From the NCBI GenBank assembly GCA_965219685.1, contig CBDCOH010000002.1, positions 3,104,001-3,168,000 on the forward strand: a stretch of 64,000 bases of DNA, in the 5' to 3' direction. This document shows positions 144 through 41,645 of the stretch, in pieces (the first letter of the stretch is position 1; each line of letters starts with the position of its first letter). The translations under genes and the position numbers were made by a program. The notes under the pieces were generated by a model. The model was given only the letters and a program-made list of their open reading frames with translations. It did no database searches and was not told where the DNA came from. Source of the DNA: Candidatus Spongiisociaceae bacterium. Lineage in GTDB: Bacteria > Actinomycetota > Acidimicrobiia > Spongiisociales > Spongiisociaceae.

Positions 144-298
144 GCTCGATACATGAATCACGCCTGCCGACTGTACCACACATAGCACGCTGCAATCCGC
201 CCGGCACTGTGTGTATCCGTGACTATCAGACCCATATAGGTGTGTGTAAAACGGTGTCGGTCGGTGGGTTCGTCAACGTGGAGTCCATCCTTGTGGTG
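144..298 (-). promoter_or_regulatory. Conserved ~155-bp upstream element (copy 1), with extended -10 TGnTACAGT and RTGTGTA-N3-GTGWC box, for a gene running off the window start
   Basis: Aligns by eye with 40949-41098 (gctcgatac...catagcacgctgcaa...tgtgtatccgtgac...tcaacgtggag...tgtggtg); -10 at 170-175, box at 209-223. Confidence 0.65.
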
Positions 299-361
299 TA
301 CGGGGGGTGCCCATGACACCGCATACAGATCAACAGTTCGGCACATCGCGAGGCCGGTGGC

Positions 362-720
362 CTAATCCACCGGTATCGCAATTTCGGCAGCCGCCGTGAG
401 CGTCAACGAAGTTTGCGACAAGGTCGTGTCCGCTACCAGCACTCGGCTGCCATGCCCCGCAGCGTCGTTGATCATCCGCCGGATCGCTTCTTTGTCGTTG
501 GGAACCGCACCGGCGAGCAGTGCTTCACCGGCGGCCGACACCGCACCCGGTGTAGTGTCTGGCCTTGGCGACATCAACACCGACGAACACCTCGGGAGCG
601 GGCTTAGGGCTCTCACCCACCAGTTGGTCCTCTTGTTGACGATCGCCTGACTGCAACTGCTTATAGGCGCCGACGCCTCAACCACATCTGCGAACCAGCC
701 GCTGAACTTCGGTGGATGTC
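362..720 (-). pseudogene. IS110 remnant (5' of transposase plus 3' part of non-coding end), inverted relative of IS110-A; the rest of its non-coding end is at ~2211-2300
   Basis: Translation AVSAAGEALLAGAVPNDKEAIRRMI matches the 959 ORF; 650-720 is homologous to the reverse complement of 861-935. Confidence 0.8.
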
Positions 721-739
721 CCCTTTACCTTGTTGAGAG

Positions 740-935
740 GCCCTGATGTGTGAGTATCGGGGCTGGTTGCTCGCCGCGGCGGGCAGGGCTTTGTCCCCCT
801 GTCAGAGAGATGGCCTGGGGGGTGTTGCCACCCGCCGTGGTTGGGTACCTGCGACCTCTTACAGGGACATGCACCGACAGGGGGCTGGTTCGTAAAGTGG
901 TTGAGGCGTTGGTGCCCTTGAGTAGCTGCCGAAGC
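740..935 (+). ncRNA. Putative bridge RNA of IS110-A
   Basis: Donor-like guides acagggaca (861-869, = right end) and gtaaag (rc of left end ctttac); target-like guides tgtccccc (792-799) and ctgggggg (815-822). Confidence 0.6.
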
Positions 936-958
936 TATTTGCGACTAGAGAGGACCAG

Positions 959-2163
959 TTGATGGGTGAGAGCCCTACGCCCGCTCCCGAGGTGTTCGTC
1001 GGTATGGACATCGCCAAGGGCAAACATTACGCCTGTGCGGTGTCGGCCAGCGGTGAGGCGCTGTTCGCCCGGGCGGTTGCCAACGACGAAGCAGCGATCC
1101 GGCGGATGATCGACAACGCTGGGGACCATGGCCGCCCGGCGTTGGTGGTTGATATGACCTCGTCGGCGGCTGTGCTGACCCTCACCGTTGCCGCGGAGAT
1201 GGCGGTTCCGGTGGCTTATGTGACCGGTTTGGCGATGCGCCGAGCTGCCGACCTCTACGCGGGTGCGGCAAAGACCGACCCCAAGGACGCCCAGGTGTTG
1301 GCCGACTTCGCTTGGCGTAACGCGGATCGGCTGACCTGGACAGCTGTCACCGATGAGTTGTTGGCCCGTCTGCGGATCCTCAACGGTCGGGACACAGATC
1401 TGGCCGCCGACGCGACTCGGGCCGCGAACCGGCGGAGAGACGCCCTATTAGCCGTGGTCGGCGGCTCTGGAGCGTGCCGTGGGAGAAAGGCTGATGTCGG
1501 TGCCCGGTCTCAGAGCCGCGCTGGTGAGATACGCCACCCCGTCGGCGCTGCGAACGGCCGGCAAAGCCCGGGTGCGGACGCTGATCTCCAAGCGCTCCAA
1601 ACGCACCGCCAACACACTCACCGACCAGATCTCGGCTGCGCTCGGCTCCCAGACCGTCACGGTGCCAGCCGAGGAGACCTGGGGCGAGACAATCGGCGAC
1701 TTGGCCGCCGACCTGGACCGGATCATCAACCGCCGCCAGCGGCTCGAAGCTGACATCGAGCAGGCCTTCTTGGAGCATCCGCTCAGAACAAGTCCTCAAC
1801 AGCATGTGCGGGTTCGGGCCCCGCACCGGCGCTCGAACCCTCGCTGAGATCGGCGACCCGCACCGTTTCGCCAACCCAGGCCGGCTAGCCGCCTACGCCG
1901 GGCTAGCCCCCGTGGACCGCCAATCAGGCCGCAGCCACCGAACAGGGCGATCACGAGGCGGTAACCACCGACTCAAGAACGCCATGTTCATCGCCGCGTT
2001 CGTTGCTACCCAACACGACCCCGACGCCCGTGCCTACTACCTACGCAAACGCGCCCAGGGCAAAGAACACAACGCCGCGGTCATCTGCGTCGCCCGCCGA
2101 CGCTGCAACATCATCCTGGCCATGCTCAAAACCCAAACGCCCTACCAACCCCGCCAATCCTAG
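959..2163 (+). pseudogene. IS110 transposase, frameshifted (3 ORF pieces)
   Basis: DEDD N-terminus (VGMDIAK...AKTDPKDA) and C-terminal LAAYAGLAP..QSG..GNHRLKNAM in different frames. Confidence 0.9.
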
Positions 2164-2578
2164 AAACTGCCCGAAGCGGCTTGACAACAAGACAGGGACA
2201 CCCCCCCCCCAGAGGTCGCAGGCACCCAACCACGGCGGGTGGCAGCACACCCTAGGCCATCTCGGTGACAGGGGAATTGAGCCGTGCCCACCGTGGTGAG
2301 CACGGTGGTGATGGAGTTGCTGCTCGTCTCCACGGACGAAGTGATACGGCCCCGTGTAGACAAGCGAAGGGACGGGTCTTTGTCGGGGTGCTGGTGTTGC
2401 TGGGCGGGGATGGTGCTGCTGGTGGCTCGGTGTGTGGTCGGACGGCGGTTGTGCCTGTGGTCATACGATTTCGGAGTGGGTCCGGGGGCGGATGAGGTCA
2501 CGATTGTGTGGTGGTTCGCTTATCGCGGCGGGCGATGACGTTGTTGCCGGTGGTCTGCTGTGTACGAAGTCGGGCGTG

Positions 2579-5500
2579 TCAGTTGGTGTTGAGGGCTCTG
2601 CTGAGGAAGGTGGCCATCTCCGCTCGGGTGACGGGTTGGTCGGGGCAATAGCGGAGGGGGTCGGTGGCGCAGCCGACGGTGATTCCAGCAGCGGCGAGAG
2701 CGTCGATGTCGGCAGCGTGTGTGTTGTTCTCGGTGTCGGTGAAACCTGCGGCTGTTTCGGCGGGAGGTAGGTTGAACGCTCGGACCAGGAAGCTGGCCAT
2801 CTGAGCTCGGGTGACGGGTTGGTCGGGGCAGTAGCGGAGGGGGTCGGTGGCGCAGCCGATGGTGATGGCTAGGTCGGCGAGTTTTTCGGTGTAGCGGATC
2901 CACCACTGTTGTTGGTTTATGTCGTGGAAGCGGGAGGTGCCTGTTGTTGGGGGGTCGTGATCTAGGGCGCGGATGAGCCATATGGCCATGACCCAGCGTT
3001 TTAGCGGCTGGTGGGGGCAGAACCGGTCTTGGTCGCATTCGGTGTCGATGAAGATGCCGTCTTTGGCTAGGGTCGCGATGGCTGGAGTGTGTGTTCCTTC
3101 GGGGGTGACATCGGCGAAGCTGGTTGTGTGCCCGACGGTGACTACAGTTTCTGCTGCGATCGTGGCTGTTTTGGCTGGTCCGTGTCCGTCGGTGTAGGCA
3201 GCGGCTACGCGTAGGTAGTGGGTTTCGTCGCCGTCGGCGGGGGTGTAGGCGTTTGCCGCGGCGTTTCGGATGGGTGCCCATGTGGTCTGGTCGGACGATT
3301 TCTCCCAGGTCCAGGTGAGGTTGCTTATCCCACCATCGGGATCGGAGAGGGCAGCATCGAGCGGGGTGCCTGTGCGGGGTGTGGGAGCGGAGAGGGTGAT
3401 GTGGCCGCGTTCGTCGGTGTTCGTGACGATGATTGTTACCAGGATGTAGTCGTCTTGTCGGGTGTCGGGTTCACCGTCGGGGTCTTTGCTGTCGTGCACG
3501 CCCACGCCGACGGTGTGCCTGGTCCTGGTTTCGTAGTCCAGAGGCGCTCTGGTTCGGATCTGGCCGGTTGACGAGTCGATTTCGAACATGTCCCGGTCGT
3601 GTCTGACGAGCGTGTAGGTGAGGGGATCGTCGTCGGGATCCGATGCTGTTACCGGCCCGCCGATGTTCACACCGGGCGCAGTGTTCTCGGCTACCGAGCG
3701 GAGGGTTCGGGAGCCTTCATCGAACGCGGGCGAGCCGGCGTCCTCTACGGGACCTCCCCCGCCTCCGCCTCCGCCGCCTCCTCCGTCGTTGCCGGTGGTG
3801 GTGGTGGTAGTAGTAGTAGTAGTGCGTGTCGTGGTGACGGTTATGGTGACATCGGTGCTTACTCTGGCGCCGTGGGGGTCGGTTGCTTCGACCCTAAGCG
3901 TGTAGCGGGGTTGAGTTAGGCGGTCTATGACGGTGTCAGGACCGACACGGATCTGGCCGGTGTGGACATCGATCGTGAACGCCGGGGCGCCTTCTTCGAA
4001 GAGTCGGTAGGTAAGCGCGTCGCCGTCGATGTCGGTGGCCTCCACCGGAGACCCGACTGGTGTGCCCGGGGGCGACCCTTGGGTGATAGAGCGGGTTGTG
4101 AAGGTTCCCGGGAACTTGGGTTGGTCGTTGACCGGGGCGACCGTCACGATCACGTCGGCTTCGTGAGTTAAGCGACCGTCGGAGGCTGCGTAGGTGAAGA
4201 TGTCTCGGCCGTTGAAGTCGTTCCTAGGCGTGTAGGTGACCGTGTTGTCGGGCTGCACGCTGATGCGGCCGTTGATGGGGCCGTCGCGCAGCGAAACGGT
4301 GAGGGGGTCGCCTTCGGGGTCGCTGTCGTTAGCCAGCACCGAGACCGTCACGGGGGTGTCCTCAGCGGTCGTGGCCGTGTCGGGTCGGGGGGCGGGCGCT
4401 TCGTTCACGTTGGTGACCTCGATCGTCACCGAGACAGCGCCGCTGCCGCCTGAGGGGTCGGTTGCGGTAACCGTTGCAGAGTACGACCGTGGCGGGGTCT
4501 CGTAGTCGAACACCGCGTGGGCTGCGACCCGGATCTGGCCTGTGGAGGCGTCGACGTCGAAGAGGTCGTCTACCGTTGCCAGCTCGTAGGTCAATCTGGA
4601 GGAGTCACCGGGGTCGGGGTCGGTGGCCCTGACCACTGCACCGACCGCGGAGGCAGGGGTTGAGTTCTCCGGAACCGAACGCACGACATTGACCGCCCCG
4701 AAGTCCGGGACGCGGTTCGTGCCGCTGGGCGCGGCCCGCGTCGGGTACCGAGCGCGGACGGTGGCGGTGTCGTCGTTCGAACCGGCGCCGTCGCGGTAGG
4801 TGGCTGTGACTCGAAGGTCATGGCCGACATCGGCGGACACCGGTGTGTAGCTGGCGGCTGAGCCGATGTCGGTCCAGGTACCGCTCTGCAGACGCTGCCA
4901 GGACCATGACAACACCACGACCGAACCATCGTCATCAGACACCGAAGCATCCAGGGCGGCACCGACCTGGGGCTGAGACGACGAGAGGATCACTGTCCCA
5001 GGCTCGTCGACGTTGACGACGTTGACGACCAGGTCAGCACCGACCGGTTCGCTGGCACCCGCACGGGCTTCCACTGTGACGTCGTAGACACTGTCACGGT
5101 TGCCGTCGGTGGGACTCTCGAAGTCGGGGGGCCGTAGAAAGGTGAGCACACCGCGGTCGCTGATCTCGAACACGGCACTGTCGGCACCGCTCAGCGACCA
5201 CCTGATCGGGGCTTGCTCGGGATCGGTCGCGGTGAACGCCGCCGCCGCGGTGGTGTCGTTCTCGTTATAGCTCACCACAAACGACCCAGAGCGACTCTCG
5301 ATGGTCGCGTCCTCGTCCATGTCGGTCACCGTAACGGACACCTCATGGCTGGCGGTGGCACCGTCGCGGTCGGAAGCCTCCACCGTGATGACATGAACAT
5401 TGTCCCTGCCAGCATCGGCAGGTCTCTCGAAGTCCGGCGGTGTCCGGAACCGCAACACGCCACCATTGATGCTGAACAGGTCAGCGTCAGCGCCGGAGAG

Positions 5501-8500
5501 CGACCAGATGATCGTGCCGCCTTCGGGGTCGACGGCTGTAAACGTGAAAATCACATCTGTGCCGTTCTCAGCAAATCTGAAATCGGCGGCTGCGGTAATC
5601 ACCGGCGGCGCGTTCACGTCGACCAACCTGAGGGTCACCACGCCGACACTGTCCCCGCCGTGCCACAGAGTCACATCGACGGTCTCGCCGTCGTCGTCGA
5701 CAGCGTCCTCGACTGCGGCGACCCGCAAACCCGTCGAGCGGTCCCCGGCGGGCAGTGTCAACGTGTATGGCGCCGCGATGTCCCGGCCGTTGAGGTCGGT
5801 GACAGCGAAGTCTTCGGCGATAACAGCGCTGCCGGCAAAGCTCGCTGCGAACCTCTGATCGTTGGTGAAGGTGACCCCACCGGTGTCCACCGTGACCACC
5901 GCCGTCTCGCCCTCGACAACCTGGGCGACGTCTGCGGACAGCCTGAAGGCCGCCGTGTCGTCGCTGGATACGTCCACCGTCGCGAAATTGGGTGAGCCGG
6001 TCAAATAGGTTGGAGGGTCTGCGGTGTCGGCTACGACCAGTGCCGTCACCCGACCCGGGTCCTCCACCACCCGGTCGTCGACGGTCGCCACTCGTAACTC
6101 CACGGTGTCATCACCCGACAAAAACGTCAACATCGACGGTCGAGCCGTGCCGAGGACCGTGCCGACTTCGGTGACCTGGACTCGCACGGTGAGCGGCTCG
6201 GTCAGCGGGCTCCCCAGCGGGGCGGTGCGTACCAGTGTGAACACCGCGTCGTTGCCTTCCGACACGCCGATGCTCGCAGGGGTGATCGTGACCTCGGGCC
6301 CCTCCAAGTCACTGGCAGGAATCGTCACCGTCCGCGAACCCAGCGACGCACCAGATTGGGCAAGCCGGGCGCTCAACAAGACGGTCTCGGCGAGTTCTCC
6401 CTCGTCGTCGTCCACCGCCTCCAACCTCAGCTGAACCGAGATGTCTCCCGCGGCCAGAGTGACCGTGTACGGCTGCGACAGCGTCCGACCCTGGGAGTCT
6501 TTCAACACGAAATCGACAGCATCGGCCGACCCGGCCACGTCGATGGTGATAGCCTGGTCCACAGCGAACTTCACGCCGTTGTTGATGATGAGCGTCAACA
6601 CGGTTTCGCTTCCCTCGGAGACCTCCCCGCTTGAGGCTGTGAAGTCGAACAGGGCACTGTCAGTGTTGGTGATCGTGACCGTGGTTGTGGCCCTCGATCC
6701 CACCGCGAATCCCGGAGGCAGTTGACCGATACTCAACTGGACCGTTTCAGGACCCTCCACCCAATCGTCGTCGACGGCTTCGAAAGACGCCGACTTGAAG
6801 TGCTCACCCGCCTTGATACTGACCCCAGAATCCATCGAGAAGTCATCGTCCGAGGCGGTGTCAGATGACGAAACGACCGGGAGGAACACCTTCTGGAGGC
6901 TGCGGTGGGTAGGGTCAACCACCACCGGCACGCCAATCGTCTCCCCCTCGCGCACGGTGTAACGGGGCGACGCGAACCTCACCCTGATCGGTGGGCCTAT
7001 CTCCCGCGTCGCGGGCACGTCGGACAGGACAGTCCCGTCAGCCGCGCAGATCCCACCCGCGTCGCACGCCCTGCCCGCAACCACCGCGACGGTGACATTG
7101 CCAACACCGGTCGGAGACAACGACAACAGGTAGGCGTTCGCACGCTCACCCCCTACCAGATGAGGAGCCACAGCCGTCACTGTCGCACCCCCCACACTCA
7201 ACGACGGACTCGACACCGAAAAATCCACAACTGGCCGACTGAACGCCACCACCACCTGCACCACATCACCCGGACCGGTATGCGACACAGATGTGTGACT
7301 GCTCGACGGGAACCGGGCCGACAGCGGCTCGGGACTCCTAGCCAGATACTCCGGCCGCATGACAGTGCCGCGAGTCCTGTCGCTGGGCCCGTCGATGTGC
7401 AGCCACTCCTGGCCGGTGTCCGGATCGGCCTGGGTGAAGACCTTCGCAGGCGAAGGTTTGATCGGGTTCCGTGGGCTCGCTCCTCCCCAGCTGATCAGCC
7501 AATGACCGTTGCTCAACGCCGCTACATGCCCGGACCGGTAACCCAGCTCACCCTCATCGTTATCTCGTTTTCCGAACAGCGCATGGTCCCGCACGAACAC
7601 TGCGTCGCCGTTGTCTAGGTCCAGCGCGTACTCCAGGGCGCGGCTGTAGATGTCGGGGGTGCGCAACAGAGTCTCACGGGTCCAGGGATTGATAGTGCAC
7701 TGCACACCGTTGTCGTAGAGGATCAGGTTCCCGCCGGGTAGCAGCGACGAGCCGTGCTGGCCGCAGAACTGTCCCTCGGGATCGCCCACGATGTCCAACG
7801 GCGGCGGTCCGAGATCGCGCTCAGCCCACTCGGCGTCGGTCAGATTCGTGGGTCCCACCCTCCATACCACATCACCGGTCACGGCGTCGATGGCCAGCAC
7901 TCTCGAGCATCCCCGCATCGACGCGATGATGAGCCCGTCGATCATCTGGAGCCCGTTCAGATGGGCATAGTCGCCGTCGCTGGGCGGGAAGAAGTGCTGT
8001 GTGCAGTCCTCCAGCGGCATGTGGTCCCACGAGTTCCAGTTGAACGTCGCCCGCCCGCCCGGGGCGACGATCTGGAACGCCGAGTCCTCCACATACACCT
8101 CAGACCCATACGGCTGCCCGTTCTCGTCATTGAACGACAGATGGGAAAGGTCACGCTGGGTGGGCTCGTAGGCCATCATCATGTGGTGACCGTTGTCGAG
8201 CAACCGGAACTCGTGGGCGTCCTGGCGTGTCAGAGGCGACACCGTTCTCGCCACCCTGATCAAGTCCAGGTTCTCGTTCAGAACGTAAGCGAATCGATGG
8301 ATATAGACATAGCGGGGCTGTCCATTGACGTCGGGATAGAACCGAAAGTACGACAAAGCCCCCGTGTCCATCTTGCGAACGAAACGAGGAACCCCGTTGC
8401 CGTCCACCGCGAACAGGATCCCGCTCAGCGAAGAGAAGAGGATCAGATCGTCGAGCACCTCCGACTCGCCCAGAGGCTTCTCAACCCTGATCGGCACGAC

Positions 8501-10015
8501 GTCATCGCCAAGGCAGTGCAGGATGTATTGGGTTTGGGCGCCGAGGCCGTCGGCGAGGGAGATGCGTACCACGCTGTAGGCCGTGACCGGCACTGTTGCG
8601 GTCACCGGGGTGTTCGCGCCCGGGTTTGTGTACTGGACGCCGTCCACCGAGATGCGGCTCGACCCGGAAGCGGGACGCATCGTCAGCGTCATCGTGTCGC
8701 TGTTGTTGCAGCCCACCGAGTAGTGCAGGATCTGCGGGTCGAACACGGGGCGCATCCGCCGCCACGCGTCTTCGCTGCTGGTAGCCGCGTCCGAGTCGTC
8801 GGTACTGATCGACAGGCCATTCAACTGGTCCGCAGCGACCACCTCCGGAGCGACTGTCTGGGCTTGCGCTCCGCTGCCGTGGCGGTCGCTGTAGGACACA
8901 CCGACCCGCAAGAAGCTGCCTGCGTCGGCCGCGGTGGGTGTGTAGCTCGACGAGTCCGCACCCGAGATCGTGGCCCACTGCTGATATCCGGTGCTGCGTT
9001 CCCACACCCAGGTCCCCGAGTCGGCCACCACCCCGTCGGGATCGCTCAACGTGGCGGTGACCGGCACACCAACACGAGGCCTCTTCGTCGAAAGCGACAC
9101 CGTACCGGGCTCGTCCACGTCTGTCACCGTCACCGTCACCGTCACCGCGGAAGCAGCCGTCTCCGACGGTGACGACGGCAACAGCGTCACCACATAAACG
9201 TTGTCGCCGTCGCCGTCGACCGGCGCCTCGAAATCCGGCGGTTTCGAAACGATCACCGGCGACACCGCACCAAGGGCAAACCGCAGAGCGCCCAACGGTT
9301 CATCAAGGCTGAAAAGGGCAGCGTCGGCGCCGCCCAGAGACCACACGATGCCGTCACGGTCCTGATCCGACGACGCCGCGAACGTCGCCACCCGCCCCCA
9401 GCCGTTCTCCTCAAAACCTACCGTGACAGGTCCCTCGACAGCCTCAAGCTCGATGACGTTGCTCACAGTCACCAACACATCCGCGGTGGCATCGTTGACT
9501 CCGTCGCTGACCTGCACCGTCAACTCATACACACCATCGGTGTCAGCGTCGCCAGGTAACTCAAAATCAGGAGCCGCCACGAACTCCAACACCCCCACCA
9601 TGCTCAAAGAGAACAACGCCGAGTCCGCACCGCCCGCCACCGACCAAACCAAATCACCCGAGGCCGTGTCAGCATCGGACGCAGTCAGAGTCGCCACCGA
9701 CGTAACCCCCTCATCCACCACGAACGGACCCGGGCTCGTGACCACCGGAACAGCCGCGCTCTGCCCCAACACCGGCGAAACCGACAACCCACCAACACCC
9801 AGCAACGCCAACCCAGCGGCGCCCAAAACCGACCGCAGCCACCCCAGGCTCCGACCCCCGCCACCGAACCGGTTCCCCAACCAGCCGATAAGGCTCCCGG
9901 ACCGGCTTCCACAGCCGAGACTTGAGAAATCGTGGATCACGCTACCGGACTGTACCGCCGTCCGACACCACCACCAAGGACTATAGCGTGTGTAACAGTG
10001 ACGGAATGACCCCAC
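2579..10015 (-). CDS. Giant secreted surface protein: cadherin repeats, arylsulfotransferase (ASST)-like domain, Calx-beta/Ig, C-terminal SLH domains; true start probably at or downstream of 9940
   Basis: Signal-like hydrophobic stretch; PDFE/DYE cadherin motifs; ASST motifs DAHEF, DYAHLN, GQH, DNG, SRALEY; SLH TRAQMASFL/TRAEMATFL. Confidence 0.9.
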   Translation of the reverse strand: MGSFRHCYTRYSPWWWCRTAVQSGSVIHDFSSLGCGSRSGSLIGWLGNRFGGGGRSLGWLRSVLGAAGLALLGVGGLSVSPVLGQSAAVPVVTSPGPFVVDEGVTSVATLTASDADTASGDLVWSVAGGADSALFSLSMVGVLEFVAAPDFELPGDADTDGVYELTVQVSDGVNDATADVLVTVSNVIELEAVEGPVTVGFEENGWGRVATFAASSDQDRDGIVWSLGGADAALFSLDEPLGALRFALGAVSPVIVSKPPDFEAPVDGDGDNVYVVTLLPSSPSETAASAVTVTVTVTDVDEPGTVSLSTKRPRVGVPVTATLSDPDGVVADSGTWVWERSTGYQQWATISGADSSSYTPTAADAGSFLRVGVSYSDRHGSGAQAQTVAPEVVAADQLNGLSISTDDSDAATSSEDAWRRMRPVFDPQILHYSVGCNNSDTMTLTMRPASGSSRISVDGVQYTNPGANTPVTATVPVTAYSVVRISLADGLGAQTQYILHCLGDDVVPIRVEKPLGESEVLDDLILFSSLSGILFAVDGNGVPRFVRKMDTGALSYFRFYPDVNGQPRYVYIHRFAYVLNENLDLIRVARTVSPLTRQDAHEFRLLDNGHHMMMAYEPTQRDLSHLSFNDENGQPYGSEVYVEDSAFQIVAPGGRATFNWNSWDHMPLEDCTQHFFPPSDGDYAHLNGLQMIDGLIIASMRGCSRVLAIDAVTGDVVWRVGPTNLTDAEWAERDLGPPPLDIVGDPEGQFCGQHGSSLLPGGNLILYDNGVQCTINPWTRETLLRTPDIYSRALEYALDLDNGDAVFVRDHALFGKRDNDEGELGYRSGHVAALSNGHWLISWGGASPRNPIKPSPAKVFTQADPDTGQEWLHIDGPSDRTRGTVMRPEYLARSPEPLSARFPSSSHTSVSHTGPGDVVQVVVAFSRPVVDFSVSSPSLSVGGATVTAVAPHLVGGERANAYLLSLSPTGVGNVTVAVVAGRACDAGGICAADGTVLSDVPATREIGPPIRVRFASPRYTVREGETIGVPVVVDPTHRSLQKVFLPVVSSSDTASDDDFSMDSGVSIKAGEHFKSASFEAVDDDWVEGPETVQLSIGQLPPGFAVGSRATTTVTITNTDSALFDFTASSGEVSEGSETVLTLIINNGVKFAVDQAITIDVAGSADAVDFVLKDSQGRTLSQPYTVTLAAGDISVQLRLEAVDDDEGELAETVLLSARLAQSGASLGSRTVTIPASDLEGPEVTITPASIGVSEGNDAVFTLVRTAPLGSPLTEPLTVRVQVTEVGTVLGTARPSMLTFLSGDDTVELRVATVDDRVVEDPGRVTALVVADTADPPTYLTGSPNFATVDVSSDDTAAFRLSADVAQVVEGETAVVTVDTGGVTFTNDQRFAASFAGSAVIAEDFAVTDLNGRDIAAPYTLTLPAGDRSTGLRVAAVEDAVDDDGETVDVTLWHGGDSVGVVTLRLVDVNAPPVITAAADFRFAENGTDVIFTFTAVDPEGGTIIWSLSGADADLFSINGGVLRFRTPPDFERPADAGRDNVHVITVEASDRDGATASHEVSVTVTDMDEDATIESRSGSFVVSYNENDTTAAAAFTATDPEQAPIRWSLSGADSAVFEISDRGVLTFLRPPDFESPTDGNRDSVYDVTVEARAGASEPVGADLVVNVVNVDEPGTVILSSSQPQVGAALDASVSDDDGSVVVLSWSWQRLQSGTWTDIGSAASYTPVSADVGHDLRVTATYRDGAGSNDDTATVRARYPTRAAPSGTNRVPDFGAVNVVRSVPENSTPASAVGAVVRATDPDPGDSSRLTYELATVDDLFDVDASTGQIRVAAHAVFDYETPPRSYSATVTATDPSGGSGAVSVTIEVTNVNEAPAPRPDTATTAEDTPVTVSVLANDSDPEGDPLTVSLRDGPINGRISVQPDNTVTYTPRNDFNGRDIFTYAASDGRLTHEADVIVTVAPVNDQPKFPGTFTTRSITQGSPPGTPVGSPVEATDIDGDALTYRLFEEGAPAFTIDVHTGQIRVGPDTVIDRLTQPRYTLRVEATDPHGARVSTDVTITVTTTRTTTTTTTTTTGNDGGGGGGGGGGGPVEDAGSPAFDEGSRTLRSVAENTAPGVNIGGPVTASDPDDDPLTYTLVRHDRDMFEIDSSTGQIRTRAPLDYETRTRHTVGVGVHDSKDPDGEPDTRQDDYILVTIIVTNTDERGHITLSAPTPRTGTPLDAALSDPDGGISNLTWTWEKSSDQTTWAPIRNAAANAYTPADGDETHYLRVAAAYTDGHGPAKTATIAAETVVTVGHTTSFADVTPEGTHTPAIATLAKDGIFIDTECDQDRFCPHQPLKRWVMAIWLIRALDHDPPTTGTSRFHDINQQQWWIRYTEKLADLAITIGCATDPLRYCPDQPVTRAQMASFLVRAFNLPPAETAAGFTDTENNTHAADIDALAAAGITVGCATDPLRYCPDQPVTRAEMATFLSRALNTN
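9988..10002 (-). promoter_or_regulatory. RTGTGTA-N3-GTGWC box 34 bp upstream of -10 TACAGT (9949-9954)
   Basis: gtgtgtaacagtgac; same spacing as at three other promoters. Confidence 0.6.
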
Positions 10016-27545: not shown

Positions 27546-27640
27546 CACCCGATACTCACAGAGTGTTTTGTCCACCCGCTTCGGACCGGCGCTGCCGCAC
27601 AAATCCTATCCAACACAAGGAGAGGGGAGACACAGGGAGC

Positions 27641-28869
27641 ATGCCGGAACAAGACCAGGTCGATGTGTATGGAGGGGTTGATACCCATCGGGATATCCAC
27701 GTTGGAGCGGTGCTGGATCACACGGGTCGCCTACTGGGGTCAGAGGAGTTCAGGGCTGATGCGGCGGGATACGCGCAGCTGGAGGAGTGGCTCCGCTCCT
27801 GGGGGCAGCCGGTTCAGGTCGGTGTGGAAGGATGCGGTAGTTACGGCGCCGGCCTGGCTCGTTATCTGACCCGAGCCGACATCGAGGTGGTAGAAGTGAT
27901 GCGTCCCAACCGCCAGCTGCGTCGTCTCAGAGGCTGACACGGTCGACACCGAGGCTGCAGCCAGAGCTGCCCTCAGCGGAGATGCCACCGGGCGACCCAA
28001 AGGCGGGGACGGACCCGTAGAAGGGATAAGAATGCTTCGGATGGCTCGCCGTTCAGCGGTCAAAGCACGCACCCAGGCCGCCAACCAGATCCACGCCCTC
28101 CTCACAACCGCCCCTGAGCAGGTCAAACATCGGCTCCGGGACTCCAGTATCCAAGCGATGGTCAGAATCTGTGTCCGCTGGCGTCCCGGCGAAGCGCAGA
28201 CCACCACCGCGTACGCGAAAAAGGCGCTGCGGCACCTGGCCCGCCGATACCGGACCCTCGACACAGAAATAGCCGAACTCGACACCGACATCCGCCGTCT
28301 CTGCGCCAAGGCCAACCCGGCGCTCCTAGCCGCCTCCGGAGTGGGCCCCCACAGCGCTGCAGCACTCCTAGTCGCCGCCGGCGACAACCCCCAACGCATG
28401 AAATCCGAAGCGGTCCTTCGCGGCACTATGCGCCCTCAGCCCCGTCCAAGCATCATCGGGACAGATAGTTCGGCATCGGCTCAACCGAGGCGGCGACCGC
28501 CAAGCCAACAACGCTCTCTGGCGAATCGCCACCAACCGGATACGCACCGACCCCCGCACCATCGAATACACCCGCAGACGCAAAGCCGAAGGCAAAACCC
28601 GCCGCGAGATCATCCGCTGCCCCAAACGGCACATCGCCCGCGAGATCTACCACCTCCTAACCAAACCATCCCCAACACCCGACGGCAACGACCTCCGCCT
28701 CCAACGCCACCAAACCCGACTAACCCTCACCGACACCGCCGAACACCTCCAGGTCCACCCCACCCTCCTATCACTCCTCGAACGAGGCCTCCACCACAAC
28801 CACCAGCTCGCCACCCGCTACCAGAAATGGCTCACCGACCCGACCACAAAACCGATTTGCAAAACATAG
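27641..28869 (+). pseudogene. IS110-C transposase, frameshifted, with C-terminal XRE-type HTH
   Basis: GGVDTH, GVEGCGSYG, RHRLNRGGDRQAN, then LTLTDTAEHLQVHPTLLSLLERG. Confidence 0.85.
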
Positions 28870-28889
28870 ACACCCCAGGAGCGCAAATG

Positions 28890-30110
28890 TCAAGCTGCGG
28901 CTTGGTCGAGGGCGGTTCGGTGTGCCCATGCGGTGTGTTCGTTGTAGGGGGTTCGGTGTTTGAGGCAGCCGTGGAGGATGCCGACGAGTCGGTTGGCGAG
29001 GGCTCGTAGTGCTTGGTGGTGGAGGTCGTCGGCTGCTCTTCGTTGGTCGTAGAACGCTCGGGCGCCTGGGCTGTTGTTTAGGGAACAGAACGCCCACTGG
29101 TCGAGGGCGTCGTAGAGACGCCGGTTGCGTATGTGGCGGGCGACCACGGCGTGTTTGCGGCCTGACGCCACTGTGACGGGCGACGTGCCGGCGTAGTTTC
29201 TGCGAGACTTGGCGCTGGTGTAGCGTTGGGGGTCGTCCCCGAACTCACCAAGCGCCCGGGCGCCGAGGACATTGCCGAGTCCTGGCTGTGAGAGGTAGAT
29301 ACCGGCGTCCGGGTGCTCCTCAAAGCGGGTTTCCAGGGCTGCTTCGAGTTCTGCGATCTGGCGGTTCAGTTCCGCAACGACGCTCACCAGCGCCCCCACA
29401 GTGGCCCCGTGTGCATCGGCGACCGGGCCGGGTGCGGCGAGCTGGGGGGTGCGGAGGCCTTTCTGGATTCGGCGGGCAACCTTGTCGAGGTTGCGTCTCC
29501 GGCCGGCGGCTTTGAGCGCGGCTCGGATCTGGGGCAGGGTCAGGCGGGCACCCCGGGTGGGGCTGGTTGCCCGGCCGAGTACAGCCAGGGTGTCGCGATG
29601 GGCCAGGTCATCAAAGGTTTCCAGCGCTGCGGGATAGTATCCTCGGAGCGTGTTGCGCATCTGGTTGGTGTGACGCACCCGGGCCCATTTCAGGTTCTGA
29701 TGTGTTCTCGCCAGTGCTTTGATCCCGTCGGCTTCGGGGCTGTCACCGGCCACGCTACGATGGTTGTGACGGTCGGTTCGTACCAGATCGGCTAACACCT
29801 TGGCGTCGCCACGGTCTGACTTAGCTCCTCCCAGGTGATGCCGGTCCCGGTAACGGGACACCGCCTTGGGATTGATCGCATACACCTGATAGCCCGCCCC
29901 GATGAGGGCACCAACCCAGAGGCCACGGTCGGTTTCGATGCCTACCACCACCTCGGCCGGCTCCGATGCGTGCTCGGCGACCATCTCATGCAAGCCGCCA
30001 ATCCCCTTGATCCCTTCCCGGAAACGAGCGAAACCCAGGCGGGCTCCGTAGGCGTCCATCAGATACACATCGTGGTGGCCCTCAGCCCAGTCGTTACCAA
30101 CAAAGATCAT
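28890..30110 (-). CDS. IS110 transposase (IS900/IS116-like), intact
   Basis: VGNDWAEGHHD, GIETDRG, AKSDRGDA, YAGTSPVTVASG. Confidence 0.95.
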   Translation of the reverse strand: MIFVGNDWAEGHHDVYLMDAYGARLGFARFREGIKGIGGLHEMVAEHASEPAEVVVGIETDRGLWVGALIGAGYQVYAINPKAVSRYRDRHHLGGAKSDRGDAKVLADLVRTDRHNHRSVAGDSPEADGIKALARTHQNLKWARVRHTNQMRNTLRGYYPAALETFDDLAHRDTLAVLGRATSPTRGARLTLPQIRAALKAAGRRRNLDKVARRIQKGLRTPQLAAPGPVADAHGATVGALVSVVAELNRQIAELEAALETRFEEHPDAGIYLSQPGLGNVLGARALGEFGDDPQRYTSAKSRRNYAGTSPVTVASGRKHAVVARHIRNRRLYDALDQWAFCSLNNSPGARAFYDQRRAADDLHHQALRALANRLVGILHGCLKHRTPYNEHTAWAHRTALDQAAA

Positions 30111-30149
30111 CCTTCGCCTCCTTCTCCGGGGATCAACTCTCTCCTGAGC

Positions 30150-30335
30150 TGTCGAGAACGCCTGGCGGCGACCTAATGGATCAGTGCTCTATGGCACGCC
30201 ACCCCATGAGCGCTACAAGCGGTCTCACCAACTGGCCGGGGCACGATCTATGTTCAGGAATCAGGTTCCAGGAGCATCCAGTACTCACCGGCCAGCCAGC
30301 TCAACCACCACACCCTCCCAGAAACACCAGAAGAA
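30150..30335 (-). ncRNA. Bridge RNA of IS110-D
   Basis: Sense GGATGCTCCT (30270-30279) and AACATAG (30248-30254) match the target; TGGGGTG (30200-30206) and CCATTAG (30173-30179) match the donor junction. Confidence 0.8.
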
Positions 30336-30374
30336 GTGGTGGACCCCCATTAGGAGCATCCGGGGCGGTTCAGA

Positions 30375-32331: not shown

Positions 32332-32405
32332 GACAAAGCCCTGCCCGCCGCGGCGAGCAACCAGCCCCGATACTCACACATCAGAGCCACCCAACAAGGT
32401 AATGG
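32332..32405 (-). mobile_element. Orphan IS110-A-type left end, truncated at the IS3 IR
   Basis: Reverse complement nearly identical to 722-795. Confidence 0.75.
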
Positions 32406-32517
32406 GGGCTTGGCGACGGCACCATCGACAGCCTCTGGCCCGGACTCGTCACGACCTCCGCTCACACATGAGCGTCTTGACCGCATCGGCTCCGACGTGT
32501 GGGCTGGCTCGTTTGGC

Positions 32518-35500
32518 CTAGTCGGCTGGCGGAGGCCCCGCACGGCCGGTGGCCTGCTCGGACCAGTCGCTGGAGGGATTGCCGGCGCCGTAGCGGGCGC
32601 GCACGATCACCTTGTATTCGGCGCCCGCTACGAGCCCGGTGACGGTGAGGCTGGTGTGGCGGGTGAACGCGTTGCGGGTCGGCCCGCCGAGCTTGCCGCC
32701 GAAGTCGCCGCCCACGAAGCTGCCGTCGACGGGCGCGATAGCCACTCGGTAGGGCTGGGTGGGCTCGGCGGGGTGCGGGTTCCAGCGGATCACTAGCTCG
32801 CCGGGGGCGTCGCCGGGCTCGACGGTTACGCCGGTGACCGGCGAGGATGCGCTCGGGGGGTCGTCGGAGGACTCGGGCTCGGATTCCGCCTGGCTGCGGG
32901 TGACTGTGAGCGCATAGGTCCGGGTCGTGTTGGCGTCCTCGGAAGTGACGGTCACTGTGATCGGGTTCTCGCCCACCTCGAGTTCGGCAGTCGCCGCTTC
33001 GGCTGTGACGGTGCCCGTTGCGGTCTGTACCGACACCGACGCGCCGAGGTGGTTTCTGGCGGCGGTCACCGTCACCGACTCGACGTCGTTGGCGACGCTG
33101 GCGGTGTACTCGATGGTGTCGGACGCGAAGGCCGGGGTCAACGCGACCACAGCGCCGTCGGGGTCTGTCAGCTCGAGGGCGCTCAGGGTCGCGTCGGGTG
33201 ACAGTTCCGCGGTCGCCGGCGACGCTGTCGGTTCTGTGCCGTTGATCGAGATCCTGAGCGCTTTGGAGCGGCCGCACGAGGTGATCGAACTCGAAGAGTC
33301 CCGCTGGTCCAAGCAGACGGCTTTGATCAGCCACCCCGGTGTGCTGACGCTGTCTTGGCCGTCGGCCAGGGTTGCGGCCAGGTCAAGCGAGCCGGCCAAG
33401 ACCTGTACCCTGACCAAGTAGGATGTGTCGGCGCTGAGCGCTATGGGGGATCCTTCGGGGGCTTCGAAGCGGGCTTCGCGACGCCTGGACAGCCCATTGG
33501 GTGCGGTTAGCGTCAAGGATTGGTCGCCCAGAGGGCTGTCAACCTTTTCGTAGATCCGGACGTCGAGTACTGCGTCGCTGCTGACGCGGTCGGGCTTGCC
33601 TAGCGTCACGCTGTCGATCAGCGCGCCTTTCTCGCCGGTGCGGAATCCCTGATAGATGATGGTGTCCTCGTTGTACCCGCCGACGTAGACCCAGACGTTC
33701 TTGGCCGGGTCCTGTTCCAGGTTGCTCACCAGCATCGTGCCGGTTTCGCTGTCGGGACGCGCGAACACGGCGGGCGTTTCGGCGCTGGCATGGTTGCTCT
33801 CGTCGCTGTGGCTGAACGCGTTGCGTGCTCTGATGAGGTAGAGGTAGGAGGTGTTTGGGGTGGTTTTCGTGTCGGTGTAGGTCGGGGCCGCGCTGGCGGT
33901 GTTGCTGGCGATCCGCTGGAAGTCGGGCGTAAGGGAGGCGGTGTAGGCGGTATAGGCGGTGTTGGCGCGCCAGACATGGTAGCCGGTCACCGCGGGGTCG
34001 CCCGGGTCGTCCCACGCGAGCGTGACCGTGCCGTCGTCGTGTGCGGTCGCGGTCAGGCCCTGGGGGGTTGCGGGCGGCGACAGATCAGCGGCCAGCACTT
34101 CGATCCCTTCGATCGAGACCCGCAGCGCTTCAGCGGACCCGCAGTCGGCGTAGCTGTCCGTCGCTCCTGCTGTGGCACGGCAGGCGTCGTCGAGTCGCCA
34201 GCGGGGGGCGCTGTCGGCGTCCTCGCCGTCGGAGTGGGTGGCCGACAGGCCCACAGTGCCCGAGACGCGGTCGACTTTCACCCAGTAGGACGTGTTCGCG
34301 TGGAGACGCGCGGTGGCGTCGTCTGCGACGGCGAAGGTCGCGTCCTGCCCTGAGCTCAGCGTGGCCGACAGCGACAGCGCAGCAAGCTGGGCCGCTGGTT
34401 GGCCTTCCGCGTCCTGGGCGTGTATGGCCACGCTGAGCTCGGCGTCGGTGCTGAGCTCGCCGACATCGGCCAGTGTCACGCCGCCGAGCAGCACGTCGTG
34501 GCTGCCTGTCGTGAAGCCCTGCAGCAGGCTCGACGGCTCCCCGTCGCCGCCCACCGACACGGCCAGGGTCTGCTCGGGATCCTGGCCGGCGTTGGCGACC
34601 AGGATCGTGCCGTCGCGTCTGGTCAGCACCATGACGCGGTTGCTGCTGGCGCTCAGGCCGTTGGCGTTGCGCGCTTTGACGTGATAGGCGTACACCGTGC
34701 CCGGTTTCGCCCGGGTGTCCGCGAACGACGCGGCGGCGGTTTCGGTGTCGTCCGTGAGCACGTAGCTGGTGCCCGCAAGATCCTCGCCGGGGCGGTGGCG
34801 CAGTATCTGGTGGCCGGTGATCGACTGGTCTGCGGGGTCGTCCCACACGAGCGACACGGTGCCGTCTTCGAGCGCGGCCGCGGTGAGGCCCTGCGGCGCG
34901 GCGGGGGGCAGCGTGAGATCGGCGTCGTTGTTGAGGATCGTGCCGGTCGCGGCCGCGACCGGGCCCAGGCGGGCGTTGTGGGACAACACGCCGAGCGTCA
35001 GCGTGAACGTCTCGTCGGCTTCATAGGCGGTGTCGTCGCCGGTGGGCACGCTGATCGTGGCCGCGGTCTCGCCCGCTGGGATCGTCAGCGTGCCCGCCGA
35101 CACCGGGGAGTAGTCGGGGCCGTCTGGTGCGTCCGGGTCTGCTGTCGCGGTGCCGTCGCTGGTGCTGTAGCGCACGGTGACGGCGTCTTGGGTCGCATGG
35201 CTCAGGGTGACGGCGAACTCGACGGCGGAGCCTTCGGCTGCGGCGGACCGTCCGTCGGACAGGCTCAGAAGCGGCAGCGGGGCAGTCCCCTCGTAGCCGT
35301 TGATCGAAAGTCTCAGCGTCCCGGAGAACGCGCAGTCGATGTGCTGCGCGCCGTCCTCCAGCAGGCATGTGTCGTCCATCAGCCAGCCCGGGGCGCTCGC
35401 AGCGTCCTCAGCGTCGGACACGGTGGCCGACAGCTCGAAGATGTCGGCGCCGCCTCCGATCCTCACGAAGTAGTGGGTGCTCGCGCTCAGTTCGACCGCA

Positions 35501-38500
35501 CGGCCGCCTGCGGCGGCGAACCTGGGCCGCTGGTTGTGGACCAGCCTGCGGGGGGCGGCGAAGGTGTGCAGCAACTCGCCGGGTGTTCCGTCCTTGGCAG
35601 CTGCCAGTATTTCCACGCTGATCCACGCGTCCGAGTTCACGCCTTCGACGCCGAACAGTGTGATGCTCTGCACTGCTGTGTCCCGACTTCCGGTCGTGAA
35701 TCCCTGCAGATATGTCGTCTCGACCGCACCTACCGACAAGGTGGCAAGCGGACGCTGCATCGCGTTGGTCAGCACCGTCGTCTCGTTGGGTCCGCTCCGC
35801 ACCGCAGCGCTTTCGCTCGGCCCGCTAGGTCCGTCGCCGTTGCGGGCCCTGACGCGGTACTCGTACTCGGTCCACGCGTCGACGCCGGTGTCCACGAACG
35901 CGGTCGCGGCGCTGCCGGTGTCGTTCACCAGCGTCTCGAACGCATCATCGGGGTCCTCCGCGGGTCTGCGACGCAGGATCTGGTAGCCGGTCACGGTCGG
36001 GTCGGCCGGGTCGTCCCAGCTCAAAGCAATCGCGCCATCCGCAGTCTCGGCCGCGGCGAGTCCCCGCGGCGCGGCCGGCGGCTGCGCTCCTGCGGTCTCG
36101 TTGCTGACAGCCAGGCCGCTGAACGGCTGGGCCGGCAGACCGAGCGCGCCGGCCCGGACGTAGTCGGGCCCTGAGGGCTGCTGGTAGCTGACCCGCACGC
36201 TCTGGCCCGGCTCTACAGGCGAGGCCAGTGCCAGCACGACCTCGCTGCCGGCGACGGTGGCGTCTTCGACAGGTCGGTCGCTGCCGTCGGCAGCGACCGT
36301 GAACGCGGTCGGGGGCAGCGTGACCGACGGATCCAACATCTCTGCCCAGGTGAGGACCATTTCGTCCCGGTCGACGGTCGCCTGGTGCAGCCTCACATAG
36401 GCCATGGCCACCGGGGCGGTGGGATCGCTGGTAACTGTCTCGTCGACGCCGCGGTCGTCGGCGAAGCTCACTCGCACCGCGACGGCATGGCCCGCGTCCG
36501 CGGCGTTCGGCGTGTACGCGGGACCGGTCGCGCCCTCGATGTCGGTGTGGCCGGTCTCGGAGTCGTCGTCTGCGCGGATCCATTGGTAGGCGAACACGGC
36601 GTTGTCCATTCCGCCGGGGTCGTAAATGCTCGACGTGTCCGCTCGCAGCGTCTCCCCGGCCTGGGCGATGCCGCGGATCGTCGGCTTGCCCGTCGCGGGG
36701 CGGTTCGGCCGCGGCGTGACGGTCGGTGTGGGATCGCTGGTCAGCGACTCTTCGTTGCCGCGGTCGTCGGCGAAGCTCACTCGCACCGCGACGGTATGGC
36801 CCTCGTCGGTGTCGGTCAGCGTGTAGTCGGCGCCGGTCGCGTCCGCGATGTCGACTGCGCCGGTCTCGGAGTCGCCGTCGATGTGGACCCATTGATAGTC
36901 GAAGGTCGCCTTCTTCAGCCCGTCCGCGTCGGAGATCGCCTTGGTGTTCGCCCGCAGCGTGTCCCCCACCCGGGCCTTGCCGAGTATCGCCGTGCCCGAC
37001 CACCAGGCAGGACTGTTGACCCCATTGACCGACCGGAGTCCCACGTCGGAGCCGGCGAAGGTGTCGCTGGTCAGCGACTCGGCGTAGCCGCCGCGGTCGA
37101 CGAACGAGACGCGGACGCTGATCGAGCGTGCGGTGTAGGCTTCGGTCCAGATGTAGGTGGGCAGGGTCGCGCCGTCGATCTCGGTCTCGACGCCGCCGTC
37201 TGAGGCGATCCACTGGTAGCGGAAATGGACGCTGTCGAGTCCGTCGGCGTCGTCGATGCCTGCGGTGTCTGCCCACAGCGTGGCGCCGGTCCGGGCCTTG
37301 CCGCCGATCACGGGCGCGCCTGAAGCCGGCCGATTCGCCGCCCTAGGCCGTCTGCCCGAGGCGTACTGGCTGGTCGCGTTCATGCTCTCGATCGGTGACC
37401 AGGCCGAGACGCCCTGGTCGTTCGAAGCCCGGACACGGAACCAGAGCGTGGAGTCCGGGTCCAGACCGCTGATGATCGCGCCCTCGCCGTAGAAGGCGAT
37501 CTCGACGCCGTCGCCGGGCAGGTCAAGCCAGCCGCCACGCCAGACCTGCACGTCGTAGGAGAAGGCGCCCGACACCGCGTCCCAGGAGAGGTCGACCCCG
37601 CCGACGAACACCGCCGTGGCGTCAGGACGGCCAGGCACCTCCGGCGCGGTCAGCGAACGAACAGACGACCTCTGGGAATTACGGGACTTCGGTGCCAGCG
37701 GCTGCTGGTCGTCACGAGACCTCTCCTCCGCCTGAACCGGCACCTGTAGGCCGAGGCTGGTCGTGAGCGGCTCGTTGTCGGCGGTGCACAATGCGCCGCC
37801 GTCTTTGCCGCAGCTTCCGCCGCCCATGAGCATGATCGAGACCGCGGCCGCGCCGTCGGGCCGGATGGTCAGTTCCCAGAGATCCAGGCGGCCGTCCACC
37901 TGGGCCACGTCGCTCAGCGTGCCGCCTGTCAGCAGCAGCCGCTCGCGCAGGCCCTCGGCTGTGGTCTGCACGTCGTGGCTGAACTCGATCCGGACACGGA
38001 ACTCGGTTTCGCCGTCGTGCGACCCGGGCGCCTCGCTGAAGCTCGCCGTCAGTTCGCCGCTCGCCGATTCCCCGAGAACGCTGTTGCCGATGCTGTTGCC
38101 GATGCTGTTACCTCCGTCGGGCAGCGCGTAGGCGTCGATCCTGCCAATGGGGTTGGTCACCCAGATCGTCTCGTTGTCCGACCAGATACCGCCCGGGGGC
38201 ATGGAGCTGACATTGCGCAGCTTGATGTCAAGCAAAGGGCGGCGCTCGCCCGTGTCCAGAACGTAGGCCCGCAGCCAGTCGCGGCTGGCTGCCCACATCG
38301 TCGTGCCGTCCGACCAAATGCCGTACGCGGGGAAGTGGCCGAAGCGATCAGACTCCGCGATCGTGCGGGTGGCCACATCCAGGGTGTAAATCCCGCGAGG
38401 TTGCTGCCCGCTCAACAAGACACCGCTCAACCAGATAGTCGAACCGTCCGACCAGATGCCATTCACGTGCAGACCCCTCAGGTTGTAGTCCATCGCGGCC

Positions 38501-40912: not shown

Positions 40913-40948
40913 ATCCCCACCTTCAGCACGTTGATCAGAATCACGCTT

Positions 40949-41098
40949 GCTCGATACACGAAGCAGGCCAGCGAACTGTAACACCCATAGCACGCTGCAA
41001 CCCGGCCAACAACATGTGTATCCGTGACCGTAGCCTTTAAATCGACGTGTAGAAAAGTGTCGGTCACGGATTCTTCAACGTGGAGCCCCTCTGTGGTG
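40949..41098 (-). promoter_or_regulatory. Conserved ~150-bp upstream element (copy 2): -10 at 40975-40980, box at 41014-41028
   Basis: Homologous to 144-298. Confidence 0.65.
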
Positions 41099-41109: not shown

Positions 41110-41645
41110 CTGAGCGGATGCTCCAAGAAGGCCACCTCGAGGTCAGCGGCGAGCCCTCGGCGCTGGTTGATGATCCGGTCCAAGTCGGCGGCGAGATCGC
41201 CGATTGCCTCGCCCCAGGTCGCCTCGGCTGCCACGGTGACGGTCTGGGAGCTGAGCCGCAGCCCAGGTCTGGTCGGTGAGATCTTTGGCGGCGCGGGGGG
41301 ACCGTTTCGCCATCTGGGTGCGCACTTGGGCTTTGCCGGCCGCTCGCAGCGCTATGGGGGTTGGGTATTTCACCAGCGCGGCTCTGAGACCCCGTATCGA
41401 CACCAGCCTTTCTCCCACAGCGCGTTCCAACGCCGGGGAAACAGCCAATAAGGCGTCACGCAGCCGGTTTTACGGTTCTAGTCGCGTCAGCCCCCAGGTC
41501 TGTGTCCCGACCGTTGAGGATCCGCAGACGAGCCAACAACTCATCGGTTACCCCCACCCAACTCAGACGATCCGCGTTACGCCGGGCGTAGTCAGCCAGC
41601 ACCTGAGCGTCGGTGGGGTCGGTCTTGGCCACACCCGCGTAAAGG
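41110..41645 (-). pseudogene. IS110-A-type transposase internal fragment
   Basis: LYAGVAKTDPTDAQVLADYARRNADRL; ERLVSIRGLRAAL. Confidence 0.8.

Follow-up and report, generated by a model that had tools for sequence, protein, structure and literature searches.

The stretch analysed here (the window) comprises 64,000 nucleotides of a Candidatus Spongiisociaceae bacterium, positions 3,104,001 to 3,168,000 of contig CBDCOH010000002.1 in assembly GCA_965219685.1. Near its left edge lies an insertion sequence (IS) of the IS110 group, element A (724-2200/2201, + strand), and on either side of A lie the two halves of the noncoding RNA (ncRNA) gene of a second, inverted element of the same family, element B. 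The locus is a complete A simply inserted, in inverted orientation, into the ncRNA gene of B.

Element A and the relative that it interrupts

The ends of A were fixed by its junctions and those of family copies taken from related genomes, a match being present in 24 of the 61 genomes searched. A begins with TTTACC... at 724, a start common to 25 left junctions, and its last bases, ...GACAGGGACA (2191-2200), are set by 19 right junctions; an extra C at 2201 may also be part of A, as in the G018-type copies described below. Between these ends A has the layout of the IS110 group, with a long left end (LE) holding an ncRNA before the recombinase gene and a short right end (RE). The LE, with its putative bridge-RNA-like ncRNA gene, occupies 724-958 (+, 235 nt), the IS110-family transposase gene 959-2163 (+, in three frames at 959-1753, 1479-1847 and 1804-2163) and the RE, of about 38 nt, 2164-2201 (+). 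The frames, taken from the list of open reading frames (ORFs), match PF01548 (DEDD_Tnp_IS110; E 4.4e-36, 124 bits) and PF02371 (E 2.6e-24).

A is a defective copy, and its recombinase ORF is not intact. The reading frame is broken by two single-base (+1) insertions, near 1456 and near 1789, both of them private to A in that all 8 of the 8 aligned full-length relatives lack them. The insertion near 1456 is also present in A2, a second fragment in the same genome (C2:2373480-), which identifies it as a true mutation, not an error of assembly. Long open frames are kept in relatives L002, L005, L026, L031 and L032 (L numbers denote loci, G numbers genomes). L002, from a related genome, is 93% identical to A and has an intact ORF of 407 aa, which scores 208 bits against NCBIfam NF033542 ('IS110 family RNA-guided transposase'; cut-off 140). 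The closest solved structure is the IS621 transposase (8wt6, E 4e-13), with similarity over the C-terminal 130 residues only.

No other full-length A-type copy is present in the genome, the remainder being fragments. Two of these lie in the window (a left end at 32332-32407 and an internal piece at 41110-41645, both -) and three elsewhere (A2 at C2:2372930-2373599, a right end at C2:3047634-3047720 and a piece of a left end at C2:4373646-4373704). At window 1449-1460, within the transposase gene, intact relatives have GTGTCCCCGG, which resembles the family's own left target, and this stretch is altered in A and A2 along with the frame-shifting extra base.

B was recognised from two inverted self-matches when window 300-2400 was compared with the whole genome by BLASTN: 768-859 pairs with 2302-2211 (84.8% over 92 nt, E 4e-22) and 864-1262 pairs with 722-319 (75.4% over 407 nt, E 6e-71). 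Both pieces of B, running from 2302 to 2211 and from 722 to 319, are on the minus strand, in the correct order and collinear in A coordinates. The gap between them amounts to the A-equivalents 860-863 only, and they adjoin A precisely at the element ends defined by the family. The first piece (2211-2302, -), identified by BLASTN and from the sequence, is the 5' part of the B ncRNA gene and contains the target loop together with the donor loop's 5' stem, which breaks off at 2211 with ...GCGACCTCT. Its target-loop guides are unlike those of A; the equivalents of the left and right target guides run from 2279 to 2270 and from 2254 to 2246. The 3' part of the gene (619-723, -) is collinear with 864-958 of A and contains the rest of the donor loop, from ...GGGGACATCC on, an allele of the right donor guide, and the outer stem; the nearest intact donor loop with which it can be compared is that of L068. 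By family comparison, the insertion point in B is A-equivalent 859/864, the 5' edge of the left donor guide in the second loop.

Beyond the ncRNA gene lies a remnant of the B transposase gene of about the first 100 codons (319-618, -), seen by BLASTN, by tblastn and in the ORF list. A tblastn search with the N-terminal part of A gives two high-scoring segment pairs in different frames, from 623 to 534 and from 544 to 320, with a frame change near 534-544; there is an in-frame stop at 362-364, and similarity to A ends at 319. Truncated, shifted in frame and interrupted by a stop, B is old and dead. Neither a closer relative nor an uninterrupted orthologue of B was found when its 404-nt 3' part was searched against 30 related genomes, the best non-self matches being 71-75% identical.

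Runs of C stand at both junctions. A C4 run (720-723, +), read from the sequence and from contigs, ends the left flank of A and represents its left target half; on the opposite strand these bases form part of the G-run in the left donor guide of B. A C10 run (2201-2210, +), read from the sequence, lies between the right end of A and B.

An earlier, sequence-only reading of this DNA had placed A inside the ncRNA gene of an inverted close relative, with the break at the left-donor-guide position of that relative. Collinear halves of B that meet the exact ends of A bear out the nesting, and the family comparison bears out the position of the break. The word 'close' has to be given up, as B is just 75-85% identical to A and nothing closer occurs among the 30 related genomes. 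The inverted repeat described there (795-859 versus 2211-2275) is indeed the core of the 768-859/2302-2211 match, but the remainder of the relative, which had been taken to end at 362, reaches 319, and 362-364 is its first in-frame stop.

That reading also named the circumstance that would undo it, an assembly artefact or foldback inversion. We regard this, as well as homologous recombination between two inverted copies in place of transposition, as very improbable, and the divergence of the arms and the bridged left junction speak against both. Contigs of 2390 and 6362 nt from three short-read runs of one sample (X17-X19) cover window 250-772 with 0 differences and extend 49 nt past the left junction, confirming C4 at 720-723. 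The right junction and the C10 run are unbridged by contigs and IS fragments are abundant in the region, both of which favour an artefact. Against this, the inverted arms are merely 85% and 75% identical, the B halves reach A precisely at ends common to more than 20 other copies, and the long neighbouring ORFs (7.4 and 8.5 kb) are uninterrupted, which an assembly full of indels would not allow. Recombination between inverted copies, moreover, predicts chimeras, not a complete A between collinear halves of B. Two particular forms were tried and rejected: a foldback made by the assembler is ruled out because the arms are not 100% identical (75-85%), and an inversion or recombination of inverted copies because A is complete and the B halves are collinear.

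In the same X17-X19 data, contigs with A-type right ends enter at least five other flanks after C6-C7 (at 2206-2207), and the sample therefore has many more A-type copies than the assembly shows.

Predicted guides and the sites of A-type copies

The 235-nt left end of A folds better than all of its shuffles (200/200, z = -3.47); no Rfam family matches window 300-2400 at E up to 1. Applied to 17 aligned copies, RNAalifold predicts an outer stem and a pair of stem-loops, each containing an internal loop. With the guide segments held unpaired there are 42 pairs, in which 95.1% of cells are paired as against 40-58% when the partners are slid, and 5 pairs have compensatory changes, with 13 such cells as against 3.8 in shuffles; the sequences are related, which inflates these counts, and the figures are supportive only. 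The LE of A is predicted to encode a two-loop, bridge-RNA-like ncRNA.

Guides were defined as in Durrant et al. 2024 (PMC11208160), the left guides being in top-strand sense and the right guides complementary to the top strand. In A the left target guide (LTG) is placed by covariation at 791-800, the apical stem at 801-814, the right target guide (RTG) at 817-824, the left donor guide (LDG) at 861-869 and the right donor guide (RDG) at about 892-900, all on the + strand. The tests used 15 rows for the RTG and LDG and 27 rows for the LTG, duplicates included (L031/L032, L008/L039, L040/L010), so that fewer of them are independent. Reverse-complemented, the segment at 817-822 equals the six bases to the right of the element at 6/6 positions in 12 of the 15 rows and at 5/6 in the other three, and each of five RTG classes (CCCCCC, CCCCGC, CACCCC, CGCCCC and CTCCCC) matches its own flanks. 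On average, the LTG agrees with the left flank of its own copy at 6.11 of 9 positions, compared with 4.67 of 9 for guides of other classes, the best matches being those of L035 and L040 (8/9 each) and of L026 and L031 (7/9).

The donor side covaries with the ends of the element itself. The LDG, the segment at 861-869, is identical to the final 9 nt of the RE in 14 of the 15 rows, including a GGGACA/GGAACA covariation, and the RDG, which lies on the 3' side of the second loop, changes in step with the first LE base, GUAAAG occurring with TTTAC... and GUAAGG with CTTAC.... The exception is the RDG allele CGCAGAUGUGG, which mismatches its own LE (TTTACC...) and is carried by B (window 657-680), A2 (L029), L003, L027, L034-L036 and L038. 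This allele is conserved, and all its carriers are truncated or frameshifted; an RE with GGGGGACA, as the LDG of these copies predicts, is found at none of the 19 right junctions.

Judged by this covariation, the predicted guide assignments of A are genuine. The two segments first proposed for its target loop, 792-799 and 815-822, were correct in substance (791-800 and 817-824), and the proposal that A and B share a scaffold and differ in their guides is upheld. L035, a copy with B-like guides, sits at a flank that they match 8/9. In L035 (genome G002) the LDG also has a perfect reverse-complementary match, over 13 nt, to bases lying 13-25 nt upstream of the insertion point of this copy (flank 1199-1225), within a flanking gene that is homologous in G000 and G007.

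A-type copies have a preference for C-runs. Comparing the flanks of other A copies had been suggested as a check on the nesting. In these flanks C-runs recur, 14 of the 25 left flanks ending CCCC and 14 of the 19 right flanks beginning with at least four C's; the sequence past the runs is unrelated among the copies. Most other A-type copies match their LTG via the C-run only (4-5 of 9). Runs of C or G of at least 9 number eight in this 4.42-Mb, 65% GC genome, the C10 run beside A being one of them, and four of the eight reach 15-17. Long homopolymers (C9 to C17) are found at C2:2341496, 2373596, 2940706, 2940976 and 3216008 and at window 61331, and one of them, a C16 run, is where fragment A2 breaks off at its 3' side.

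One orthologous empty site was identified. Genome G006 reads CTACC-A-C6-GCAACC where G005 has a copy between CTA-C5 and C7-GCAACC, with flanks 97% identical, and the eight bases predicted by the RTG, CACCCCCC, are already in the G006 empty site, that is, before insertion. The loci corresponding to L025, in G006 and G001, differ upstream and provide no empty site.

A repeated target of the more distant G018-type copies allowed occupied and empty loci to be compared directly (L040, L010, L087 and L103, and 13 empty loci within L085-L113). The 13 empty copies listed read ...GGGCC-C[T/A/C]-... followed by a C-rich stretch, 9 of them ...GGGCC-CT-GCCCCC..., and the two occupied copies read ...GGGCCCT/CTTACC...GGAACAC/GCCCCC... 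(slashes at the junctions), with nothing duplicated. The crossover bases are CT, those of the target, at the left junction and AC, those of the donor, at the right, and the RTG fits the product junction (CAC plus flank) better than the empty site. These unequal junction bases are what top-strand-only insertion, as proposed for another IS110 element (10.1101/2025.10.25.684509), would be expected to leave. The crossover of A itself is masked by the C-runs on both sides.

Routes by which A could have entered B

The most probable account, in our view, is a normal RNA-guided insertion of A into a C-run (a G-run on the B strand) within the left-donor-guide DNA of B. At the insertion position the donor guides of the B lineage (L068, L030, L036, L014, L045, L034 and A2) read ...GGGGGACA; they are a G-run followed by ACA, and their complement is therefore TGT followed by a C-run. 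With C's on both sides, the site of A in B is an ordinary A-type site. The right half fits, the first six bases of the C10 run being CCCCCC and matching the RTG of A at 6/6, and the present flanks add up to an empty site of approximately TGT-C13-AGAGG.

The A-type LTG, UUGUCCCCCU, and RTG, GGGGGG followed by UG, specify C-runs on both sides of the crossover. On this account the G-run in the decaying B would have grown long (about 10-13) by the time of insertion and so offered one of the few A-type sites available. Insertion of A would have split the guide-RNA gene of B, killing the B ncRNA, and A would have gained its two frameshifts later, leaving the locus a fossil. The location in the donor guide of a relative would most likely be incidental and not selected.

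Several observations weigh against this account. The left flank of A offers C4 where the guide has C5 followed by U: compared with the LTG, the flank ...GGATGTCCCC matches at 4/9, 4/9 and 7/9 for an overhang of 0, 1 and 2 guide bases, and the best-matched relatives use an overhang of 0 or 1, so that the match is 4/9 in their register. Because the left C4 is confirmed by contigs, this shortfall is not an assembly error. The length of the C10 run and the right junction (2207-2214), on the other side, come from the assembly, with no X17-X19 or X1 contig spanning them. The long run in B before insertion is assumed, not seen; the donor guide of intact relatives has G5 only, and about ten such relatives have not been hit. 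These ten or so unhit G5 loops are at the same time consistent with a longer run being required. Finally, the G006 locus is the sole cross-species A-type empty site, and on its left side the element is not the only difference from the occupied site. The match between target loop and empty site that had been read from the sequence at the outset stands for the RTG, at 6/6, and not fully for the left side, where the TGT needs a slide of 1-2 bases; the CT/AG next to the run has a match in no other A-type right flank.

If B had instead had the usual run of about G5, a half-match (one-arm) insertion could be envisaged, in which only the left guide of A and the crossover bases (TGTCCCC...) were matched and slippage later shortened the left run and expanded the right one to C10. 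Intact relatives read CTCT(GA)GGGGGACAT, of which the complement, ATGTCCCCCT(C), equals the LTG of A plus the following U over 9 nt. One-arm matches are enough for IS621 insertion in vitro and account for 47% of non-target insertion reads (10.64898/2026.08.31.748434), and C/G runs of 11-17 in the present genome indicate that runs do expand here. The account, though credible in the light of the IS621 data, is unlikely. Two later length changes, opposite in direction, would have to be assumed, the TC/GA dinucleotide of the guides of the nearest relatives is missing at the site, and the relatives with exactly this G5 guide, about ten, are uninterrupted; the contig-confirmed C4 again means that the left shortfall is no error of assembly. 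A variant in which the donor guide of A read the guide DNA of B as a pseudo-donor, a left-donor (LD)-only half-match, was also considered. It predicts A in the orientation of B and 3' of ...ACA, and is ruled out, as A is inverted and lies 5' of ...ACA.

The sequence-only reading had gone further and called the locus an independent second case of donor-loop targeting. No second instance was found. A junction next to the ncRNA of a relative occurs in 1 of the 25 left and 1 of the 19 right junctions, and in a BLAST map of all fetched loci the window copy alone adjoins the ncRNA of a relative on both sides. A scan of genome contigs for an A right end followed by a C-run and an inverted donor-loop stem gave 13 hits, none in A-type context, and a scan of metagenome contigs for the left-junction pattern gave 1 hit, likewise with no A-type context; these numbers are those of chance only, and both scans may lack records from the window's own genome or from genomes very near it.

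These counts bear on the idea that A-type target loops have evolved to recognise the LDG DNA of sister lineages, disabling competitors or homing, which we consider improbable. In its favour, in copies of the L030/L036 type (G002) the LTG plus U (UGUCCCCCU) is the exact reverse complement, over 9 nt, of their own LDG (AGGGGGACA), and the two left guides of A itself are complementary at 7/9. Other guide classes (L035, L031 and the G018 type) are without LTG/LDG complementarity. One such hit lies in the window, as against the low junction counts and the 13 and 1 scan hits without A-type context.

Two further loci have been weighed in this connection. One is L010 (G018), which at first sight resembles a donor-loop hit: a partial copy of 153 nt stops shortly (a few bases) past the donor guide, and a full copy comes directly after it. 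The partial copy (1314-1466) runs from the LE through the LDG plus about 6 nt, the full copy occupies 1467-2951, and both lie inside one standard target. L010 has no displaced 3' part, however, and it fits the LD-only-boundary partial tandem duplications described in the relevant passages of 10.64898/2026.08.14.744561. It may be an LD-like partial tandem duplication of this kind, or a direct nested insertion trimmed by recombination. In L047 (G006), where an A-type left end (505-602) lies 33 nt downstream of a fragment of the transposase gene of a relative (115-472), the nesting is in the transposase gene and not in a loop, so that element-in-element nesting also occurs outside loops.

In its general form, the idea would be that the donor-loop DNA of relatives is a built-in cognate half-site, making bridge-RNA genes natural targets for interference or homing. 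We give this little credence. If it were true, related elements would disable the guide RNA of a competitor, and the window would preserve one such hit.

A first case of donor-loop targeting, implied by the sequence-only reading, was looked for and not identified: the window contains one other abutting pair of IS110-family elements, at 27561-28869 (+) and 28866-30354 (-), arranged tail to tail and not in a loop. The two belong to different subfamilies, one being 96.5% identical to three other copies in the genome and the other 83-84% identical to four, and a similar pairing is found at C2:3082039-3084837. The IS-rich stretches of the window are flanked by two very large ORFs, 2579-10015 (-) and 32518-41067 (-), which encode 2478 and 2849 aa with repeated extracellular-type modules.

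Significance and comparison with known systems

The nested A demonstrates that a bridge-RNA gene is itself exposed to a destructive hit from a related element; the locus is now a fossil, with no evident effect on its host. How bridge-RNA guides work can here be read straight from genome sequence, in a lineage that is uncharacterised, high in GC and rich in IS elements: five naturally reprogrammed classes of target loop occur at matching flanks, and one of them specifies a homopolymer. The crossover bases of the G018-type copies, together with the complementarity between target and donor guides, provide natural data for the debates on top-strand-only insertion and half-match recombination.

A search of the literature found no description of an insertion into the donor-binding loop of a relative or of a poly-C-targeting IS110 element in main texts; supplements might hold cases. 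The passages of 10.64898/2026.08.14.744561 on resident copies report that IS110 elements insert into or beside them without target immunity and that partial modules duplicate at LD-like boundaries. The likeness to the present family there is L010, and those passages describe no insertion inside the donor-binding-loop DNA of a relative.

A-type elements resemble IS621 and the IS110 group, as set out in the corresponding sections of PMC11208160, in having DEDD and C-terminal Tnp domains, a long LE with a two-loop ncRNA, a short RE and site-specific insertion, and in having internal loops that bear the LTG and RTG and the LDG and RDG. Unlike IS621, A targets a C-run and not a repetitive extragenic palindromic (REP) element, and the likeness of the proteins is C-terminal only. 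The core of IS621 is CT on either side of the element; in G018-type relatives the left junction has CT and the right one AC, and no bases are duplicated.

Members of the IS1111 group also target other mobile elements: IS4321 and IS5075 insert in the inverted repeats of the Tn21 family, and the IS1111-attC elements form a further case. Those associations are recurrent and specific and are found in many independent copies. The nesting of A in B, in contrast, is a single event, and the other copies of the family lie in unrelated C-runs. The locus is a neat natural illustration of IS110 biology as already known, and not a new kind of system.

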